A DNA stretch of 36,847 nucleotides from Candidatus Dadabacteria bacterium RIFCSPHIGHO2_12_FULL_53_21 (GTDB taxonomy: Bacteria > Desulfobacterota_D > UBA1144 > Nemesobacterales > UBA2774), in the NCBI GenBank assembly GCA_001775255.1, contig MFCJ01000037.1:1-36847 (forward strand), read 5' to 3'. Numbering within the stretch: position 1 is the first letter of the stretch; each line of letters opens with the position of its first letter. The position numbers and the translations under genes were made by a program. The notes beneath the pieces are model-generated. The model worked only from the letters and a program-made list of their open reading frames with translations. It had not been told where the DNA came from and did no database searches. Shown piece after piece: positions 7,980-23,349 of the stretch.

Positions 7980-8276
7980 TGTAATATCACGGGGTTAAGC
8001 AGGGTCTTGGGATCCGATGTGTAATCACAAGAAAAAAGCCTGTTCAGACAGACTGGGATATTTCGAAACCTTAAATGCGTTCAATCGTATATTGATAGGA
8101 GAGGCCGGTACGAATATCATCGTTAGACCGATGGCGAAGGCTTTCGTGTTTAGTAGTGAGCCCGAAGATAACAGCAGTGCCCTCATGATGGATACGATCT
8201 ACGGCTTAGAAAGTACACCCCCGGAACGCAGTCGTGTATCCGGGGTAGAAACCCGAATCCTCACCGACACTCGAAT

Positions 8277-10136: not shown

Positions 10137-11921
10137 ATGAACGCGATCAAGAAAGTTGAATCCCCCCCGAAAGCCCGTCTCGCGGTCAGGGTCGGCGTTA
10201 CCGGCCACCGTCTGAACGGCCTCGATAAGGCCGATATCGCCGCGCTCAGGATGCGGGTGAACGAAGTCCTGAAGCATATAAGCGGCGTTGCCGGCGAGGT
10301 GAAGTCGTCATTCGAATCTTTGTATTCCGACGGCGGGCCGCCTGTACTGAGGATAATATCTCCTCTCGCGGAAGGAGCGGACACGCTCGTCGCGGAGGCA
10401 GCGCTTGCAGAAGGATTCGAGCTCCAGTGCGCGCTCCCTTTCGGCCGCCAGGAATATGAAAAGGATTTTGCGGACGGCCTATCCCTCGGCAAGTACCGGA
10501 CGCTCCTGGGGACCGCTGCCTCGATACTGGAGCTCGACGGTTCGCGGGCGACGCCCGAGGTCGAGAACGAGTCTTATCAGACCGTAGGCCGGATGGTACT
10601 CGCCCAGAGCGATGTGCTTATTGCGGTATGGGACGGAGAGGACGCGAAAGGGAAGGGAGGCACGGGTCAGATCGTGAAGGAAGCGCTCATTAACGAAATC
10701 CCCGTGGTTTGGATAAACTCCGGTGCCCCGCACGACATAATGGTGCTCATGGGAGGAGAATATGAGGGGTTTAAAAAAGCGAGCCTCCGAGAGCTGGAAC
10801 TCAGACTAAAGAGGGTCCTTAAACCCGAACACCCGAAGAAACCCGACCTCAGCCGTACGTACTTTGATGAAAAACAACCGACCTGGACATGGGGTTTCAT
10901 ATTCGAAGCCTTCTGCGATATATTCGCGCGGGATAGGGTAGATACCGGGGGGGCAAGGGTCGGGGATTTCAACGAATCATCAGAAACGGAATGGCAGAAG
11001 GTTTGGGACTCGTGTCCTGATTTTCCGCAGTCCGTGAAGGATCAGATTAACGAAAAATTCCTCGCTCACTACGCATGGGCCGATAGGCTCGCCAATTATT
11101 ATTCGAATATCTACAGGAGTTCTTTCCTGGCTAACTACCTGATGGCCGCTTTGGCGGTCTTATTCGCACTTCTTCCGCCAATACCGGGGTTTGAAAACCT
11201 GTGGGTACTCTGCGAGCTCGCTTTGATTATCATGATAATAGCAATCACGGCAGTAGGGAACCTGAAGCATTGGCACGAGAGGTGGATAGATTATAGGCTT
11301 CTATCGGAACAGATAAGGCATCTCAGGTTTCTCGCGCCTCTCGGCCTCACCACCCCGGCGTTCAGGGTGCCGGCCCATGATACATACGGAGACCCCAGGA
11401 GCTCGTGGGTAAACTGGCATTTCAGGGGGATTGTCCGAGAAGCGGGAATGGTAGGAACGAGGATAGACAGAGAATACCTCACATCCTACAGGGATTTCCT
11501 CTCGAAGCAGGAAATATCCGCCCAGATAGATTATCATAAACGCAACTCACCCCGCTTCCACAGGATCCATCACAATCTCCATCTAATTGGCGGGGGACTC
11601 TTCGTCCTCACTCTTATCGCGTGTTTAGCCCATCTGTATGTTCACAACGACCTGCTGACCATTCTGGCGGCCATATTGCCTGCATTCGGCGCTGCGTTCT
11701 ACGGTATCCGGACCCATGGGGAATTCGAGCTGATAGCGAAGCGGTCGGATGCCATGAGCGCCCATCTGGAGAACCTCAGGAACGAGATCGAAAAGACCGA
11801 TTTTGTACCATCTTACAGGCTCCTCGGCCAAATCGCTGAAGATACGGCGGAGGTAATGTCATCGGAAACACTAGACTGGAGGATTGTTTTTCAATCCAAG
11901 CGTTTGGTGTTGCCTGGGTAG
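10137..11921 (+). CDS. SLOG-like domain fused to two 2-TM SLATT-like membrane modules; paralog B with intact glycine-rich motifs
   Basis: 594-aa ORF starting 6 nt after paralog A. SLOG-like domain (aa ~14-205, nt ~10176-10751): VRVGVTGHR, IISPLAEGADTLVAEAALAEG, CALPFGRQEYEKDF and LIAVWDGEDAKGKGGTGQIV. The motif order parallels DprA (xVGTR / SGxAxGID..AH / AVLxxGxDxxYP). Module 1 (aa ~305-400): YYSNIYR, two TM helices, then HWHERWIDYRLLSEQIRHLRFL, resembling the DUF4231/SLATT W..YR..aE.L motif. Module 2 (aa ~450-590): QIDYHKRN, two TM helices, then AKRSDAMSAHLENLRNEIE. Confidence 0.65.
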   Translation: MNAIKKVESPPKARLAVRVGVTGHRLNGLDKADIAALRMRVNEVLKHISGVAGEVKSSFESLYSDGGPPVLRIISPLAEGADTLVAEAALAEGFELQCALPFGRQEYEKDFADGLSLGKYRTLLGTAASILELDGSRATPEVENESYQTVGRMVLAQSDVLIAVWDGEDAKGKGGTGQIVKEALINEIPVVWINSGAPHDIMVLMGGEYEGFKKASLRELELRLKRVLKPEHPKKPDLSRTYFDEKQPTWTWGFIFEAFCDIFARDRVDTGGARVGDFNESSETEWQKVWDSCPDFPQSVKDQINEKFLAHYAWADRLANYYSNIYRSSFLANYLMAALAVLFALLPPIPGFENLWVLCELALIIMIIAITAVGNLKHWHERWIDYRLLSEQIRHLRFLAPLGLTTPAFRVPAHDTYGDPRSSWVNWHFRGIVREAGMVGTRIDREYLTSYRDFLSKQEISAQIDYHKRNSPRFHRIHHNLHLIGGGLFVLTLIACLAHLYVHNDLLTILAAILPAFGAAFYGIRTHGEFELIAKRSDAMSAHLENLRNEIEKTDFVPSYRLLGQIAEDTAEVMSSETLDWRIVFQSKRLVLPG

Positions 11922-11938
11922 TCAATCACAGCTATAAT
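11910..11938 (+). promoter_or_regulatory. Candidate internal promoter for the TIR gene, embedded in the 3' end of the preceding gene
   Basis: TTGCCT (11910-11915), 17-nt spacer, perfect TATAAT (11933-11938). It is followed by a purine-rich SD region (GGAGGAGAGGGGGGA, 11956-11970) and the ATG at 11976. Confidence 0.4.
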
Positions 11939-11975
11939 CCTCCGGTATTTCCTCTGGAGGAGAGGGGGGAAACAG

Positions 11976-13349
11976 ATGGCTCACGATGTTTTTATCAGTC
12001 ACTCCGGAAAAGACAAACCCATAGCCGACGCCGTGTGCGCGACACTGGAAATCGGCGGCGTAAGGTGCTGGATCGCGCCGAGAGACATAGTGCCCGGCAC
12101 ACAGTGGGGCGAGGCGATTATAGATGCCATAAGCTCGAGCCGGGTCATGGTGCTCGTTTTCTCTTCCAATGCCAATGAATCCCAGCAGATCATCAGGGAA
12201 GTAGAACGCGCGGTCAGCAAGGGCATACCCGTTATCCCTTTCAGGGTCGAAGACGTCGACCCCAATAAATCCCTCGAATATTTCATAAGCGCACCGCACT
12301 GGCTCGATGCCTTGACCCCGCCCCTCGAAAAGCACCTGGAACAGCTTCTGTCCACAATAAAGCTGCTGCTCTCAAGACAAGGGGCGCGCACAGAACCTCC
12401 TTCCGACGGAGATACCGCGCGAGCAAGCGGAGCCACTCCATCCGGGCCCGAAAGGGCCGGTCGGGAGTCGGATACGCGCATTGAAACCATCAGGCCGCTC
12501 GAAAAGAAGGATTATTCCGGCGGAAAGTCTTTCCTCGAGGATAAAAAGAAGCTCGGCGGTCTAATAGCCCTAGTCCTGGTTTTAGGATTGGCCGGGTATC
12601 TGATTTTCGGCGGCGGTGACGACGGCAATGATGGGACGAACAATAATCAGAACCAGATCATACCGGGCCCGTCCAATCATTATCAGCCTCCCGTATATAC
12701 CCCGTCCCCTCCCGGTCCGTACGATAACGAAGGGAACTGGGGGGCTATAGCGATTGCGCCAAGCGGGGGCTGGGGTTTTTCCTCGAACATGTCCTCGAAA
12801 CAGGCGGCCGAGAAGGACGCTGTTGAAAGGTGCAGTCAATTCAATACGGGGTGCGAGGTCAGAATCTCGTTCAATACCTGTGCTGTCTATGCCACGGCCC
12901 CGGACGGGTCATACGGTTGGGCGACAAATACTACCGTCGATCTGGCGAGAAATAACGCGGTAAGCGAATGTCACAAGTATACGAATGATCTGTGCTCCTC
13001 GTTCATCGAATTGTGCGCCGACGGGAGCGTTAAGAGTGTCAATGAATGGGCTGCGATAGCGACTGCCGACAATGGGCAATACGGCGCCGCATGGAACTAT
13101 CCCACGCGGGTCCAGGCGGAAAAAGCGTCGGTCGATGAGTGTGCGAAGTACGGGCCCAACTGTCAGATGAGGATTTCGTTCACCGACTGCGGTGCTATAG
13201 CGAGGAGTGAGGACGGAGCTATCGGATGGGGCTATTATGCGGACATGAGCCAGGCGGTCAAGGCTGCGATGGATGAGTGCGACAACCGGGGCGAAAAACC
13301 CTGCAGCATCCTCACCCAGCTCTGCGCCGACGGGAGCGAGAGGAAATAA
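11976..13349 (+). CDS. TIR-domain protein with a single TM anchor and two extracytoplasmic DUF4189-like six-cysteine repeats
   Basis: 457-aa ORF. TIR (aa ~3-130, nt ~11982-12365): DVFISHSGKDK..., RVMVLVFSSNANESQQIIREVERAV (candidate catalytic Glu75, nt 12198-12200) and PHWLDA. An acidic/Pro-rich linker follows. TM helix LGGLIALVLVLGLAGYLIF (nt ~12552-12608). Repeat 1 is aa ~255-349 and repeat 2 is aa ~358-453; each starts W(G/A)AIA and each has 6 Cys with identical spacing (7-9-30-8-7). Confidence 0.75.
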   Translation: MAHDVFISHSGKDKPIADAVCATLEIGGVRCWIAPRDIVPGTQWGEAIIDAISSSRVMVLVFSSNANESQQIIREVERAVSKGIPVIPFRVEDVDPNKSLEYFISAPHWLDALTPPLEKHLEQLLSTIKLLLSRQGARTEPPSDGDTARASGATPSGPERAGRESDTRIETIRPLEKKDYSGGKSFLEDKKKLGGLIALVLVLGLAGYLIFGGGDDGNDGTNNNQNQIIPGPSNHYQPPVYTPSPPGPYDNEGNWGAIAIAPSGGWGFSSNMSSKQAAEKDAVERCSQFNTGCEVRISFNTCAVYATAPDGSYGWATNTTVDLARNNAVSECHKYTNDLCSSFIELCADGSVKSVNEWAAIATADNGQYGAAWNYPTRVQAEKASVDECAKYGPNCQMRISFTDCGAIARSEDGAIGWGYYADMSQAVKAAMDECDNRGEKPCSILTQLCADGSERK

Positions 13350-13364
13350 AGTAGTCCGGATTCT

Positions 13365-14204
13365 TCAATTGCCGGATTTTTTGACCGGCACGGCTTCCAT
13401 AACGACCTCGGGTGAATCACGGTCGTTCTCCAAACCCTCGTACCTCACCCATTTGTGCGGGGGGGCGACCGTAAACCAGAAGTAGGTCTTCGGGAAAAAG
13501 ACTTTGAACACATTGAGGGCGCCCAGCTTGGGGACGAGCTCGACTTTATAGCACTCGACTTCCCCGCCCGGCGTGTTTATCGTCTCACGCCCCTTCTGTT
13601 TGAATTCGACGTTATAGAGATCGGGCTCGTTAGTCAGGAATTGAGCTTTGACCGTATCGTCCGTACCGAAAGGGAGCGATCGGAGCGCAAGGACTATTCC
13701 CTCTACGATCATCAGGTCCCGTTCGGTCTCGAAAGATTCGTTTACAGAACCGTTGTTTTCGTGATCTTCCCTTACGAATGTCACCGTCCCCGCAGAGTCA
13801 TCCACCGTTTTCCTTTCTGTCATTACCAGATTCCCCTGCATGTCCCTGACTTCTGTCACCGCTTGTACGGGAGTAAACGCAGCCCCGGATTTCCACACCG
13901 AAACGGATTCCCATTTCATATCCCTCGTGTAAGGGTTTGTAAGTCCCTGCGCGTTTAGCACCAACCTTACCTTTGACTCGCCGCTTTCGATAAATTCATC
14001 CAGCGTCCAGGTCGCTTTCCATCTCGTCCCTCCTTCCTTGTAAGAGGTGATGAAGGAGCCTTCCTCTTTTTTACTCATAGGGGGTACGCTCATCGGATGC
14101 GCTTGGGGCGCGGCCATCAGTTGGGATAATAAAAAGAGCACGAGTATCACAATATCTCGCTTATATGATATGCGAATTGCACTGCGGCTGAGACCGGTAA
14201 CCAT
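13365..14204 (-). CDS. Exported beta-rich protein of unknown function (possibly DUF3108-like)
   Basis: 279-aa ORF with an N-terminal hydrophobic signal-like segment (IVILVLFLLSQLMAAPQA). It converges on the TIR gene with only 15 nt between the stop codons. The family assignment is weak. Confidence 0.55.
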   Translation of the reverse strand: MVTGLSRSAIRISYKRDIVILVLFLLSQLMAAPQAHPMSVPPMSKKEEGSFITSYKEGGTRWKATWTLDEFIESGESKVRLVLNAQGLTNPYTRDMKWESVSVWKSGAAFTPVQAVTEVRDMQGNLVMTERKTVDDSAGTVTFVREDHENNGSVNESFETERDLMIVEGIVLALRSLPFGTDDTVKAQFLTNEPDLYNVEFKQKGRETINTPGGEVECYKVELVPKLGALNVFKVFFPKTYFWFTVAPPHKWVRYEGLENDRDSPEVVMEAVPVKKSGN

Positions 14205-21100: not shown

Positions 21101-22252
21101 CTAGGCCATCTCTTTTTTGCTCGATACGAGCCTGTCCAGTATCTCCCTCTGAATGGCTTCTATCTCTTCCCCTGCTGTCTTGATTTCATCCGTGGGCTTC
21201 CCCCTTTCCCTGCACTCCTCGACCAGCTCGTCCAGCTTCGCCCCTATGTGCTTTAGCTTCGTCTGGGCTTCGATATTGGCTTTTATCAGCATTTCCTCGC
21301 TCTCCCATTCCCGCCTCGAATATGCGTCGAGCTCTTTTGCCTGTATGAGCAGCTCCCTCAGCCGGTCCCTCCAGCCGTGGAGCGATTGATGGATGACCGA
21401 CTGGATTTCGGCTTTTTCCCCGGGCTCCCTCCATAGTACGTTCTCCAGAAAGCGCAGGTCGTCCTCGGAGACCTCGCTCCTCCCCTCGAGGTATGCCCTG
21501 GATTTGAGAAGAGAGACCGATTGCTTATATCTTCTGTCTGAGGGGGTTATGCCCTTTTTCGCCAGGTCTTTTCTGATACGGGATATGAGCTTCAATATGT
21601 TCGAAGGCAGCTTGACCCTTCCCGCTTCTTCCCGGCAGGAATCGAGTTCCTCCGAGGTGATTACCCCTTCTACGGAAATTTCGTTCTCGGTGTTGAGCAT
21701 CTTAAGAAATCTGAAGTCTTCTTTTATGTAGTCCACGACGTACCTCAGGAGGAACCTGTCGTAAAGGGCTTCGAGCTCGTCTTCCTCGGAGGGAAGCTCG
21801 TTGCTCGCACCGAATAAAGAGATAAGCGGTATCCTGACCTTTTCAGTGCCGTTATAAAAGATTCTTTCATTCATAATCGTGAGCAGCGTATTGAGGATCG
21901 AGGAGCTGGCTTTAAAGACCTCGTCCAGGAACGCTATATGCGCTTCAGGGAGCTTCCCCGAGGTGACTCTCCTGTATTCGTCGTTCTCAAGCCCCTTCAA
22001 GCTTACAGCGCCGAATAGCTCCTCGGGTGTGGTGAACTTGGTAAGAAGCCACTGGAAATAGCGGGCTCCGGTTATCTTGCGGCAGATTTCGTTAGCGAGC
22101 TGGGACTTGGCCGTGCCCGGAGGGCCGATAAGCAGCAGGTGGCTCCCCGTAAGGAGGGCGCAGAAGGCGCCGTCTATTACGTCATCCCTTTCGAAGTAAC
22201 GCGATTTCAGATCGCTTCTAATTTTCTTTAATTTTTCTAGAGTTCTTTCCAT
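21101..22252 (-). CDS. MoxR-class AAA+ ATPase, RavA-like (no LARA domain, coiled-coil C-terminus)
   Basis: 383-aa ORF. Walker A is LLLIGPPGTAKS and Walker B is IAFLDEVFKA. TKFTTPEELFG and ILNTLLTIMNER are collinear with the E. coli RavA N-terminal module as I recall it. Its start overlaps the gspK stop by 16 nt. Confidence 0.85.
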   Translation of the reverse strand: MERTLEKLKKIRSDLKSRYFERDDVIDGAFCALLTGSHLLLIGPPGTAKSQLANEICRKITGARYFQWLLTKFTTPEELFGAVSLKGLENDEYRRVTSGKLPEAHIAFLDEVFKASSSILNTLLTIMNERIFYNGTEKVRIPLISLFGASNELPSEEDELEALYDRFLLRYVVDYIKEDFRFLKMLNTENEISVEGVITSEELDSCREEAGRVKLPSNILKLISRIRKDLAKKGITPSDRRYKQSVSLLKSRAYLEGRSEVSEDDLRFLENVLWREPGEKAEIQSVIHQSLHGWRDRLRELLIQAKELDAYSRREWESEEMLIKANIEAQTKLKHIGAKLDELVEECRERGKPTDEIKTAGEEIEAIQREILDRLVSSKKEMA

Positions 22253-23349
22253 GTCACGATGTCCACTATAACTTCCTGGTCACGTCTGGTTTTCTTGAGT
22301 ACCGCTTCGATTATTCTCTTTGTCGGGTTCTCCTCGCCGAGGCTGCCTACGGCCCGTACGGTGAAAATCTCGCTCTCCCCGCTGCCGAGCACGACGCCTA
22401 CCAGACCGGCGCTGATCTCGGACGTCTCGTCGACGCTCTTAGCTATCTCCCTCGCTTTCTGCTGGGTTATTATAGGCGTTTCCTTTCTCTCCTCTATTAT
22501 CTGATCCGCAATCTGTTCCGCCACGTCGTCGTCGACCTCCTTTTCGGAGCCTCCGCCCTGGCCCTCGATGGCGGAAACGGCCGATCCCTTAACCGCGGCT
22601 ATAATCACCGCCTTCGGAGCCGTGCTGAAGTTTATCTTCTTATCTCGCGGAAAGACGGTGACGAAATCCTTAATCTGGTTATAGAATTCGTCGTCCATGC
22701 CGTCTATCATCCTGATTTCCTGGAGTGTGTCGATAGGGCCGTCCTTTATGCTGTAAGGGTTTTCGAGGCTGGCATAGAAAGACCCGTTCGCTCCCGCCGC
22801 GTCCTGATCGTTTTCAGCGCCGTCGAGCGGGGCGTCCGTCCAGTTAATGAGGCTCGAAATGAACCTCGCGGACTTGGCCTCGTCGACCTCGAGGATTTTG
22901 AAAAGCTCGGTGAGCTCGGTCCGGACCTGCCGGTCTACTTTGTTTGTCGAGCGGCCGACGAGTGAGTTCAGGTTTATCTTCGACCTCTCGTCCGTGACCG
23001 TAACGGATACGTTCCCCTGCCCGACGGGGAAATACGGCACGTTGATCGCCCAGAAGCCCTCCAGGTTCTCGTCTTGTCCGCCGAGCGCGGCAGTCAGCGA
23101 GCTCAACTCTTCAAGCGGCCTCGCTTTAAGCGTCCCCGCCGCCACGTGCACCCCCGATTTGGCGATATACCGGGCTTTGATTTCGTCCCTCGTGTTTGAC
23201 GATATCTCCGTATCTATCTGAGTGAAATAAATAAGGTCCGTTACGAGAATCATAAGGACCGCAATAATGATAATCACTATTACAAGGACGATCCCTTTTT
23301 CCTGATCCCTGTTCCTCGCGTCGTTCGTAATTTGGTATCTGTTTTTCAT
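22237..23349 (-). CDS. gspK: Type II secretion system minor pseudopilin GspK
   Basis: 370-aa ORF with the N-terminal hydrophobic helix GIVLVIVIIIIAVLMILV. Its size and its position after gspJ are typical of GspK. Confidence 0.8.
   Translation of the reverse strand: MKNRYQITNDARNRDQEKGIVLVIVIIIIAVLMILVTDLIYFTQIDTEISSNTRDEIKARYIAKSGVHVAAGTLKARPLEELSSLTAALGGQDENLEGFWAINVPYFPVGQGNVSVTVTDERSKINLNSLVGRSTNKVDRQVRTELTELFKILEVDEAKSARFISSLINWTDAPLDGAENDQDAAGANGSFYASLENPYSIKDGPIDTLQEIRMIDGMDDEFYNQIKDFVTVFPRDKKINFSTAPKAVIIAAVKGSAVSAIEGQGGGSEKEVDDDVAEQIADQIIEERKETPIITQQKAREIAKSVDETSEISAGLVGVVLGSGESEIFTVRAVGSLGEENPTKRIIEAVLKKTRRDQEVIVDIVTWKEL

Follow-up and report, generated by a model that had tools for sequence, protein, structure and literature searches.

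Genes and domains at the locus

The DNA studied here, hereafter called the window, is the whole stretch of 36,847 nt that makes up contig MFCJ01000037.1 of Candidatus Dadabacteria bacterium RIFCSPHIGHO2_12_FULL_53_21. Its forward strand carries three genes in a row. The first two encode the related proteins SS1 and SS2, of which SS2 combines a SLOG domain with two SLATT modules, and the third encodes a protein composed of a TIR domain, a single predicted transmembrane (TM) helix and two DUF4189 repeats (TIR-TM-2xDUF4189; Table 1). Due to the shared strand and the short gaps of 6 and 54 nt, the trio looks co-expressed. This gene order is kept on every recovered orthologue contig with enough upstream sequence, down to approximately 57% identity. 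The most likely role of the TIR-TM-2xDUF4189 protein is that of a receptor-type TIR protein feeding SLOG-SLATT effectors.

Table 1. Features of the three-gene locus in the window. dN/dS, ratio of nonsynonymous to synonymous substitution rates from a codon analysis of eight orthologous genes; the values are rough, since dS is near saturation outside the TIR domain. aa, amino acid residues; ORF, open reading frame; AF2, AlphaFold2; pLDDT, predicted local distance difference test score.
Feature	Position (nt)	Strand	dN/dS	Basis
Promoter-like site before SS1, possible operon promoter	8092-8120	+		consensus scan 10/12; pattern match only
SS1, divergent full-length SS2 paralogue, 617 aa	8277-10130	+		hhalign; weak SLATT_1
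SS2, SLOG and two SLATT modules (4 TM helices), 594 aa	10137-11921	+		NCBIfam, Pfam DUF4231, AF2, Foldseek
Promoter-like site before the TIR gene, within the 54-nt gap after SS2	11910-11938	+		pattern match only
Shine-Dalgarno sequence GGAGGAG of the TIR gene	11957-11963	+		13-19 nt 5' of ATG; pattern match only
TIR-TM-2xDUF4189 protein gene, 457 aa	11976-13349	+		stop codon 13347-13349; ORF translation, Pfam
TIR domain, predicted cytoplasmic, aa 1-131	11976-12368	+	0.017	Pfam TIR_2, PDB profile alignment, Foldseek
Variable charged/Pro-rich linker, predicted cytoplasmic, aa 132-192, K/R-rich end KKDYSGGKSFLEDKKK	12369-12551	+	0.30	pLDDT <50, 47% mean identity
Single predicted TM helix, aa 193-211	12552-12608	+	0.25	Kyte-Doolittle; predicted helix 194-209
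Gly/Asn/Pro-rich spacer, predicted extracytoplasmic, aa 212-250	12609-12725	+	0.48	low pLDDT, length differs among orthologues
DUF4189 repeat 1, aa 251-353, Cys 286/293/302/332/340/347	12726-13034	+	0.09	Pfam; pLDDT 84-90
DUF4189 repeat 2, aa 354-457, Cys 389/396/405/435/443/450	13035-13346	+	0.11	phmmer, Foldseek; pLDDT 83-92

The TIR-TM-2xDUF4189 gene is an uninterrupted ORF of 457 codons. Its product scores 80.6 bits for the Pfam family TIR_2 (PF13676; aa 5-124, cut-off 28, E 1.7e-22) and 134 bits for DUF4189, which is matched in two stretches (cut-off 25, E 2.4e-39). The original prediction, made from the sequence alone, had named an N-terminal TIR domain and had likened the two repeats to DUF4189; both assignments are borne out by these matches and, for the TIR domain, by the TIR structures that head the Foldseek list. 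The cysteine positions and the repeat offset of 103 aa given earlier were reproduced exactly. Full-length orthologues number 20, with identities of 57-88%, and all of them keep the helix, the 12 ectodomain cysteines and the putative catalytic residue E75. Relatives with an NCBI name among the matches are named as Candidatus Dadabacteria and Thermodesulfobacteriota. Considering the E-values of the hidden Markov models (HMMs) and the purifying selection in every domain, the gene is genuine and constrained and not a chance pattern. Diversifying selection on the DUF4189 ectodomain is not supported (dN/dS ~0.1, a rough value).

Predicted topology and relatives of the ectodomain

A Kyte-Doolittle value above 1.6 was observed only for aa 193-211 (peak 2.5), as expected from the earlier description of a charged or Pro-rich linker followed by one hydrophobic helix. 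Lys and Arg residues are distributed unequally around this helix, with seven in the 20 residues before and none in the 20 residues after it, and because of this bias an N-in/C-out, i.e., type II, topology is predicted, which is well supported. Equally well supported is the prediction of a single-pass inner-membrane protein with a cytoplasmic TIR domain and two disulfide-stabilised, periplasmic DUF4189 repeats. The same layout had been proposed in the original prediction; it agrees, as a prediction, with the charge bias, with the secreted or periplasmic location of DUF4189 relatives and with the parallel case of Pkinase-TM-DUF4189 proteins. An inverted topology with Cys-rich repeats in the cytoplasm (e.g., for metal binding) and the TIR domain outside, or a segment that does not span the membrane, would fit the low AF2 confidence in the helix region but is highly improbable in view of the charge bias, the lack of an N-terminal signal peptide for exporting a TIR part of 190 aa, the three disulfides of the secreted or periplasmic DUF4189 relatives and the position of the helix, which is the same in about 100 relatives.

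At an offset of 103 aa, the two repeats are identical in 37 of 104 positions, and each begins with W(G/A)AIA. Repeat 1 (aa 255-347) covers positions 1-97 of the 97 positions of the DUF4189 profile. Repeat 2 matches Rv1813c (PDB 7nhz), a secreted effector of Mycobacterium tuberculosis, with a phmmer E-value of 4.8e-5, and C389, C396, and C405 align with cysteines of this protein. Foldseek likewise retrieves 7nhz (E 2.1e-4, target TM-score 0.55), and the order of strands and helices in the AF2 model is as expected for a twofold beta-beta-beta-alpha-beta DUF4189 fold. By profile match, six-Cys pattern and fold, the ectodomain belongs to the DUF4189 (PF13827)/Rv1813c group.

The periplasm of Xanthomonas contains XAC2611, an abundant DUF4189 protein that possesses three conserved predicted disulfides and prevents fratricide by the Xanthomonas type IV secretion system (X-T4SS) via binding of the pilus-tip protein VirB5 (bioRxiv 10.64898/2026.05.09.723464). 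The repeats of the window protein share with XAC2611 and Rv1813c the fold of about 100 aa, the six conserved cysteines and, as predicted, the three disulfides and the extracytoplasmic location, VirB5 binding by XAC2611 being the known activity. In contrast to these free single-domain proteins with a signal peptide, the window protein contains two copies tethered to a TM helix and a TIR domain. An exhaustive search with the ectodomain revealed 605 representatives. Of the 150 best, 125 are shorter than 330 aa, 95 of these 125 with a signal-like N-terminus, and a TIR domain is present in a single one, namely the cluster (50% identity) that contains the window protein. A distant TIR variant with only one DUF4189 copy was found as well (P0059), and a word-indexed homologue search with the ectodomain alone returned two proteins.

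Receptor kinases of the type Pkinase-TM-DUF4189 (P0290, P0380, and P0303) have the same topology and ectodomain family as the window protein, with a kinase instead of a TIR domain as output. They appear uncharacterised, as do caspase-like Peptidase_C14 proteins with a C-terminal DUF4189 (P0288, P0273, and P0322). Based on XAC2611, the short signal-bearing relatives and the receptor-kinase fusions, DUF4189 is therefore, on computational grounds, an extracytoplasmic module of protein-binding type, which was repeatedly recruited to form the outer portion of signalling proteins that span the membrane.

The TIR domain and its active site

An alignment check of the BB-loop, as proposed with the original prediction, yielded RDIVPG at aa 36-41 (nt 12081-12098), which fits the classical Box-2/BB-loop motif RDxxPG. 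A profile of the window TIR domain and nineteen relatives (A3) was aligned to the solved TIR structures in the PDB. In this alignment, E75 (nt 12198-12200) coincides with the catalytic Glu of AbTir (wtnyEL), Cat1, oyster TIR-STING, and PdTIR, i.e., with the Glu site of helix alpha-C represented by E208 of AbTir and E642 of SARM1, and it occupies one of only six invariant columns of A3. The earlier proposal that E75 is the equivalent of the catalytic Glu is in good agreement with this result.

Four residues before this Glu, Q71 (nt 12186-12188) replaces the Trp of the WxxxE motif (W204 in AbTir). It aligns with the Trp of AbTir, Cat1, TIR-STING, and PdTIR, and the consensus of the subfamily reads S-x-Q-I-K-R-E in this region. 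The Trp is common in characterised TIR domains with NADase activity and takes part in the binding of NAD+ by AbTir and SARM1. Due to the presence of Gln instead of Trp, the active site appears from its sequence to be of a catalytic type, yet not canonical. The Gln may indicate a different substrate or product, or an altered regulation.

The mean identity of the TIR domain among orthologues is about 94%. Due to this nearly invariant alignment, the AF2 model of the full protein reaches only moderate confidence in the TIR part (pLDDT 60-76). The orthologues with this TIR dN/dS of 0.017 share approximately 70% identity in their ectodomains; constraint by a shared partner or by hetero-oligomerisation of paralogues is possible. 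C21 and C31 (..AVCATLE..G.RCWIAPRD) are nearly invariant in the TIR cassette. The ThsB models of PADLOC gave E-values of 0.002-0.04, and the domain was not assigned to the ThsB family; for the type III Thoeris family ThcB4 of NCBIfam, 13.7 bits were obtained at a cut-off of 220. The closest PADLOC resemblance is to the effector-type SAVED_TIR.

The upstream proteins SS1 and SS2

SS2 is a SLATT protein, with a match to NCBIfam SLATT_1 in two stretches (64 bits, cut-off 41). Its AF2 model (pLDDT 89) contains four long helices. For the N-terminal domain of the model, Foldseek gives DprA and the LOG-family protein TM1055 at a probability of 1.0, and N-termini of TRPM proteins occur lower in the list; the sequence profile of the SS2 family had no significant match in the PDB. 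Because the AF2 model matches the DprA/LOG fold, the N-terminal domain is, at the level of the model, assigned as a SLOG domain. Taken as a whole, SS2 is predicted to be a nucleotide-gated membrane effector.

The families of SS1 and SS2 align with a probability of 99% over 527 columns (hhalign). In SS1, the SLOG motifs that are invariant in the family are degenerate, with GVTGRK instead of GVTGHR, SLSGGDE instead of PLAEGAD, and QDTTARII instead of GGTGQIV. This loss of motifs suggests a subunit of a hetero-oligomer that does not bind the ligand. Among the loci examined, SS1 was seen only in those of Dadabacteria type, always directly upstream of SS2.

Association of SS2 homologues with TIR genes

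A scan with the SS2 alignment, using one genome per GTDB species, revealed 79 loci, of which 72 lie outside the Dadabacteria-type lineage, in Acidobacteriota, Alpha-, Beta-, and Gammaproteobacteria, Gemmatimonadota, Verrucomicrobiota, Planctomycetota, and Latescibacterota. A TIR gene occurs within 8 kb in 31 of these 72 loci and within 300 bp in 14. In many of the SS2-TIR pairs, the two genes run in the same direction and overlap or are separated by very short gaps (L015, L017, L018, L020, L036, L052, L063, L065, L076, L080, and L083). The density of TIR genes decreases from 20 per 100 kb at less than 0.5 kb from SS2 to 0.5 per 100 kb at 6-8 kb, values which are indicative only, since the loci are phylogenetically non-independent. 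Judged from the SS2 side, the link indicatively exceeds synteny. The TIR proteins encoded next to SS2 are of different types, comprising TIR-TM-PDZ, TIR-TM-FGE-sulfatase, SIR2-like-TIR, TIR-AAA_35 (STAND-like), and TIR-WD40. A constant SS2 effector with interchangeable TIR sensors resembles, by analogy, the pattern of Thoeris with its ThsB-like TIR proteins.

In several loci, two to three TIR genes of the subfamily described below are arranged in tandem (L065:5060-7986, L076:4993-7969, L087:5564-7833, L096:2820-6900, L129:156-4433, and L166:3007-5643). Where examined, in L065, L076, and L087, the arrays consist of genes for TIR-TM-X proteins, i.e., TIR-TM proteins with various C-terminal domains. 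The adjacent copies in L065 and L076 differ in length and sequence cluster, and one copy in L065 has an FGE-sulfatase domain. Some arrays are located directly beside a single SS2 gene, which fits several sensors acting on one effector. A further occurrence lies on the mobilizable megaplasmid pSBC2-4 of the cultured strain Caballeronia sp. SBC2 (L172; NZ_CP049320.1, 20529-27929), with an SS2 homologue, a TIR gene and a WD40 gene in a row. The RefSeq annotation lists a DUF4231 protein, a soluble divergent TIR protein and a WD40 protein of 1190 aa.

A family of membrane-anchored TIR proteins

Of 8,000 scored candidates, 4,834 match the TIR domain alone, with 55-75% identity. Among the 120 best matches, exactly one predicted TM helix was observed in 97, usually at about aa 150-240, and several TM helices in 16 (e.g., TIR-BioY). 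Since 97 of 120 have this single helix, membrane anchoring is the rule and not the exception in this TIR-TM-X subfamily. The original prediction had seen the receptor-like layout as a departure from soluble TIR proteins; in its own subfamily, however, the layout is not unusual. The window protein is a member by sequence, with a TIR identity of 60-75% and the same linker and TM layout. In contrast to the window protein, most other members have no SLOG-SLATT neighbours, and the tandem DUF4189 is restricted to the cluster of the window.

The N-terminal cassette is constant across phyla and reads MAHDVFISYS..DK..ADAVCA.LE..GIRCWIAPRDI.PG..WGEAIIDAI...R.MVLVFS.NAN.S.QIKREVERAV.KGIPIIPFRIEDV.PSKSLEYFIS..HWLDALTPPLE.HL. 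Its TIR identity is 60-75% across phyla despite unrelated C-termini (P0024-P0120 compared), which include FGE-sulfatase (C-type-lectin-like), tetratricopeptide repeat (TPR), DUF1080, DUF4190, leucine-rich repeat (LRR), WD40, and PDZ domains. A literature search found no description of a bacterial family of receptors with TIR domain, TM helix and ectodomain, and the motifs CWIAPRD and HWLDA are absent from the listed rows of the supplementary tables of a recent Thoeris preprint (bioRxiv 10.64898/2025.12.03.692087). An association with AAA/SMC ATPase genes, located upstream of two solo TIR-TM-X genes, was dismissed as chance, the lengths and Pfam lists of the ATPases resembling RecN and ABC-F proteins.

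Ryanodine receptor domain genes in related loci

In other loci, genes encoding ryanodine receptor (RyR) domains were found near SS2 or TIR-TM genes (L005:7227-9065 on the minus strand, L061:9848-11818, L079:9842-11839, L036:5398-7209, L089:6170-6760, L090:6050-6295, and L091:1-3089); none is present within the window. Their products occur as TrkA_N+RyR proteins of about 600-700 aa, as small RyR proteins and as RyR+TPR-S+guanylate cyclase. A TrkA_N+RyR gene directly follows SS2 in many loci of the Acidobacteriaceae and is also located near SS2 in Alphaproteobacteria, Methylococcales, Thermincola, and Verrucomicrobiales. In L061, L079, and L086 of the Alphaproteobacteria, SS2, TrkA/RyR, and TIR-TM-X genes are co-directional.

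Association was also observed for TIR genes: on many contigs labelled Dehalococcoidia, a TrkA_N+RyR gene abuts a solo TIR-TM-DUF1080 gene. Small RyR proteins are encoded after the TIR-TM genes of L089 and L090, with the co-directional order TIR-TM, RyR, SLATT_1 in case of L090, and two RyR proteins upstream of the TIR-TM-TPR gene of L091. Nothing on an association of TIR with TrkA_N+RyR was found in the literature search or among the PADLOC models. The TIR output may have a further receiver in the RyR repeat.

Flanking genes in the window

Further genes in the neighbourhood encode DUF3108, DUF3568, and SnoaL proteins, a transporter, a Zn-peptidase and ribonucleotide reductase. The DUF3108 gene (13365-14204, minus strand) runs towards the TIR gene, the two stop codons being 15 nt apart; it occupies the same place in all orthologous loci and is probably just syntenic. 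By synteny with L001, the ORF at 21101-22252 (minus strand) was assigned to a bpMoxR/AAA_5 ATPase (383 aa) and the overlapping ORF at 22237-23349 (minus strand) to a 370-aa protein with a T2SSK_1st match. Pairs with a MoxR-type ATPase are known from conflict systems that depend on NTP. A recently acquired island as origin of the locus was rejected due to the uniform GC content and the syntenic flanks.

Comparison with known systems

In type I Thoeris, composed of the TIR protein ThsB and the SIR2-SLOG protein ThsA, a cyclic ADP-ribose (cADPR) isomer made by the TIR protein is received by a SLOG domain, and in type VII canonical cADPR from a TIR protein acts on the SLATT effector ThsH; the Thoeris preprint counts "SLOG and 4TM" among 29 predicted configurations (bioRxiv 10.64898/2025.12.03.692087). 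The same survey explicitly discarded stand-alone TIR proteins. TIR-SLATT neighbourhoods, with SLATT as a membrane effector gated by ADP-ribose derivatives, were predicted earlier by Aravind and colleagues (PMC9503650). The pairing of TIR with SLOG-SLATT is thus of an already known kind, unvalidated in its exact form. New are the TIR partner as an integral membrane protein with a predicted periplasmic tandem DUF4189, the duplication of the effector into a conserved and a degenerate paralogue, and the affiliation of the TIR domain to a near-invariant receptor-like family.

As in Thoeris, the TIR gene adjoins the gene of an effector with SLOG and/or SLATT, the TIR protein is variable and the effector constant, and the TIR domain contains the catalytic Glu. 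In the window, the putative signal-binding effector is represented by SS2 with its SLOG fold, whose gene ends 54 nt before the TIR gene. Unlike the characterised ThsB, which is cytoplasmic and senses phage inside the cell, the TIR protein of the window is integral to the membrane, with a periplasmic tandem DUF4189 as predicted above. Its effector combines a SLOG domain with two SLATT modules within a single chain and occurs as two paralogues, SS1 and SS2, whereas the description of ThsH gives a SLATT annotation only and does not mention a SLOG domain. Matches to ThsB models, a defence-island context and mobility are all lacking at the window locus. We therefore describe the system, by analogy, as working like Thoeris but not as a member of it.

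Toll-like receptors share with the window protein an extracellular sensor, one TM helix, a cytoplasmic TIR domain with the RDxxPG Box 2 and, presumably, TIR apposition driven by the ectodomain. They are, however, type I proteins with a C-terminal TIR domain and an LRR ectodomain, whereas the window protein is of type II with an N-terminal TIR domain and DUF4189, and on these features it is no Toll-like receptor. In addition, the window TIR domain keeps the catalytic-type Glu with a nucleotide messenger or pore as predicted output, in contrast to adaptor recruitment by Toll-like receptors. No evidence was found for a common descent of the whole architecture.

Proposed mechanism and alternative interpretations

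The interpretation starts from what was observed, namely the domain composition, conservation and topology (as predicted) of the receptor, partners with a SLOG fold and SLATT modules, and the recurrent adjacency of SS2 and TIR genes across phyla. From these we infer, with a probability of approximately one half, a Thoeris-like three-gene module in which SLOG-SLATT pores are gated by an NAD-derived signal from a periplasm-sensing TIR protein. The DUF4189 pair would be engaged by a periplasmic ligand or an envelope event, and by analogy with XAC2611 and VirB5 the ligand would most likely be a protein. Ligand-induced clustering of the receptor would bring the TIR domains together, their assembly would complete the active site around E75, and the assembled, then presumably enzymatically active domains would cleave NAD+ to a messenger derived from ADP-ribose. 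This putative signal would bind to the SLOG domain of SS2, which probably hetero-oligomerises with its degenerate paralogue SS1. As pore output, the SLATT helices would open or disrupt the membrane (depolarisation), with growth arrest or death as result, and the module may serve in defence against phages or competitors.

Several observations weigh against such a module. On the side of the TIR domain, these are the replacement of the WxxxE Trp by Q71 and a score below the cut-off of Pfam ThsB_TIR (17.2 vs. 21.2 bits). PADLOC had no match for SS1 and SS2, which are not classed as known defence proteins, nor for the DUF3108 neighbour, the SS2 homologues and the TrkA-RyR homologues. The locus has no defence-island neighbours and no GC anomaly. 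The housekeeping flanks are conserved in Dadabacteria-type genomes as well, and the linkage there may be inherited gene order. The ectodomain evolves under purifying instead of diversifying selection and the locus is stable by vertical descent, which is not the pattern of an arms race. Furthermore, two "SLOG and 4TM" systems, from Streptomyces and Nitrospira, gave no protection in Escherichia coli (bioRxiv 10.64898/2025.12.03.692087), and BLAST with the two "4TM SLOG" TIR domains of that preprint against all ORFs of the examined loci yielded no match.

The gene neighbourhoods also contain points against the module. In about a third of the SS2 loci, neither a TIR nor an RyR gene was detected nearby, and a SLATT and/or RyR neighbour was observed in only 4 of 21 metagenomic TIR-TM-X loci flanked by 2.5 kb or more on each side. 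L004, L008, and L088 have neither neighbour, and L005-L007 only TrkA_N+RyR and no SLATT. None of seven distant TIR-TM-X genes adjoins an SS2 homologue, L090 having a shorter SLATT_1 gene. Judged from the TIR side, the link between SS2 and TIR is weaker. The original prediction had named a wide occurrence of the architecture without SLOG/SLATT neighbours as evidence against itself; this applies to the generic TIR-TM-X layout (4 of 21 loci) but not to the exact TIR-TM-2xDUF4189 architecture, which follows the SLOG-SLATT pair on every recovered orthologue contig that is long enough upstream.

Among the alternatives, the one that survives best, although we consider it unlikely, is transmembrane signalling outside immunity. 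The TIR-TM-X proteins would then be a general class of receptors, similar to chemoreceptors or receptor kinases, whose variable ectodomains respond to envelope or environmental cues and whose TIR domain makes a housekeeping messenger or serves as a non-catalytic adaptor for a conserved partner, with ion flux, dormancy or development instead of abortive infection as output. Such a role would be in line with the extreme conservation of the TIR domain (dN/dS 0.017, and 60-75% identity between phyla although the C-termini are unrelated), the missing Trp of WxxxE and the purifying selection on an ectodomain whose family also occurs in Ser/Thr receptor kinases. It would also be in line with a chromosomal, vertically stable locus that lacks defence genes nearby and is seldom found on plasmids, and with the recurrent association with TrkA_N/RyR proteins, which resemble regulators of ion transport. 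The catalytic Glu is invariant, however, SLATT proteins are cell-killing effectors in characterised CBASS and Thoeris systems, and no non-immune role of a bacterial TIR-SLOG-SLATT set was found in the accessible literature.

Slightly less probable than this is a self-contained sensor-effector that works alone, as most members of the subfamily must, and in which periplasmic input clusters the TIR domains and NAD+ is depleted directly, as by SARM1, TIR-STING, and TIR-SAVED, with SLOG-SLATT as an independent or auxiliary system located next to it by chance. The presence of the catalytic Glu, the closest PADLOC resemblance to an effector-type TIR, the location of the trio within a syntenic housekeeping context and the lack of a SLATT/RyR neighbour for most TIR-TM-X genes are consistent with it. 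The authors of the Thoeris preprint also caution that unvalidated types may use TIR as an NAD+-depleting effector (bioRxiv 10.64898/2025.12.03.692087). Against direct depletion stand the adjacency of SS2 and TIR, which recurs in unrelated phyla with tight or overlapping junctions and a steep decay with distance, and the combination of a variable TIR with a constant SS2. Products of TIR domains are, moreover, an obvious candidate ligand of SLOG.

Beyond the Thoeris-like module itself, one may ask whether the near-invariant TIR cassette is the hallmark of a large receptor class, as yet undescribed, with variable ectodomains. Such receptors would convert periplasmic or extracellular cues into a common NAD-derived messenger, to be read by dedicated receivers encoded beside some members, namely SLOG-(SLATT)x2 pores as in the window or, in other lineages, RyR-domain proteins (TrkA_N+RyR, RyR+SLATT operons). 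If this applies, it would represent outside-in TIR signalling in bacteria. We regard this generalisation as doubtful and mention it only tentatively.

Implications

To our knowledge, the characterised bacterial TIR signalling systems (Thoeris, CBASS/Pycsar effectors, SPARTA, and Cat1) all detect intracellular events. The window locus would represent a TIR whose input domain is located in the periplasm. A periplasmic input would extend TIR immunity or signalling to envelope cues such as phage adsorption or injection, attack by type IV or type VI secretion systems (T4SS/T6SS) and cell-cell contact, and the window protein would be the closest functional bacterial analogue of a Toll-like receptor. 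The failure of "SLOG and 4TM" systems in E. coli would be explicable, as their trigger may be extracellular or lineage-specific. The SS2-TIR axis may possibly be approached experimentally with pSBC2-4 of Caballeronia sp. SBC2.

If the tentative generalisation to a receptor class holds, products of the TIR cyclase type would be tied to a prokaryotic RyR domain, which bears on the debated eukaryotic connection between cADPR and the ryanodine receptor. The RyR-domain neighbours offer a tractable prokaryotic system for the question of what the RyR repeat binds. Bacteria of soils and sediments contain the TIR-TM-X family in great abundance, and public sources label its members only generically, as TIR domain-containing or hypothetical proteins, so that a function for the family would annotate thousands of genes.

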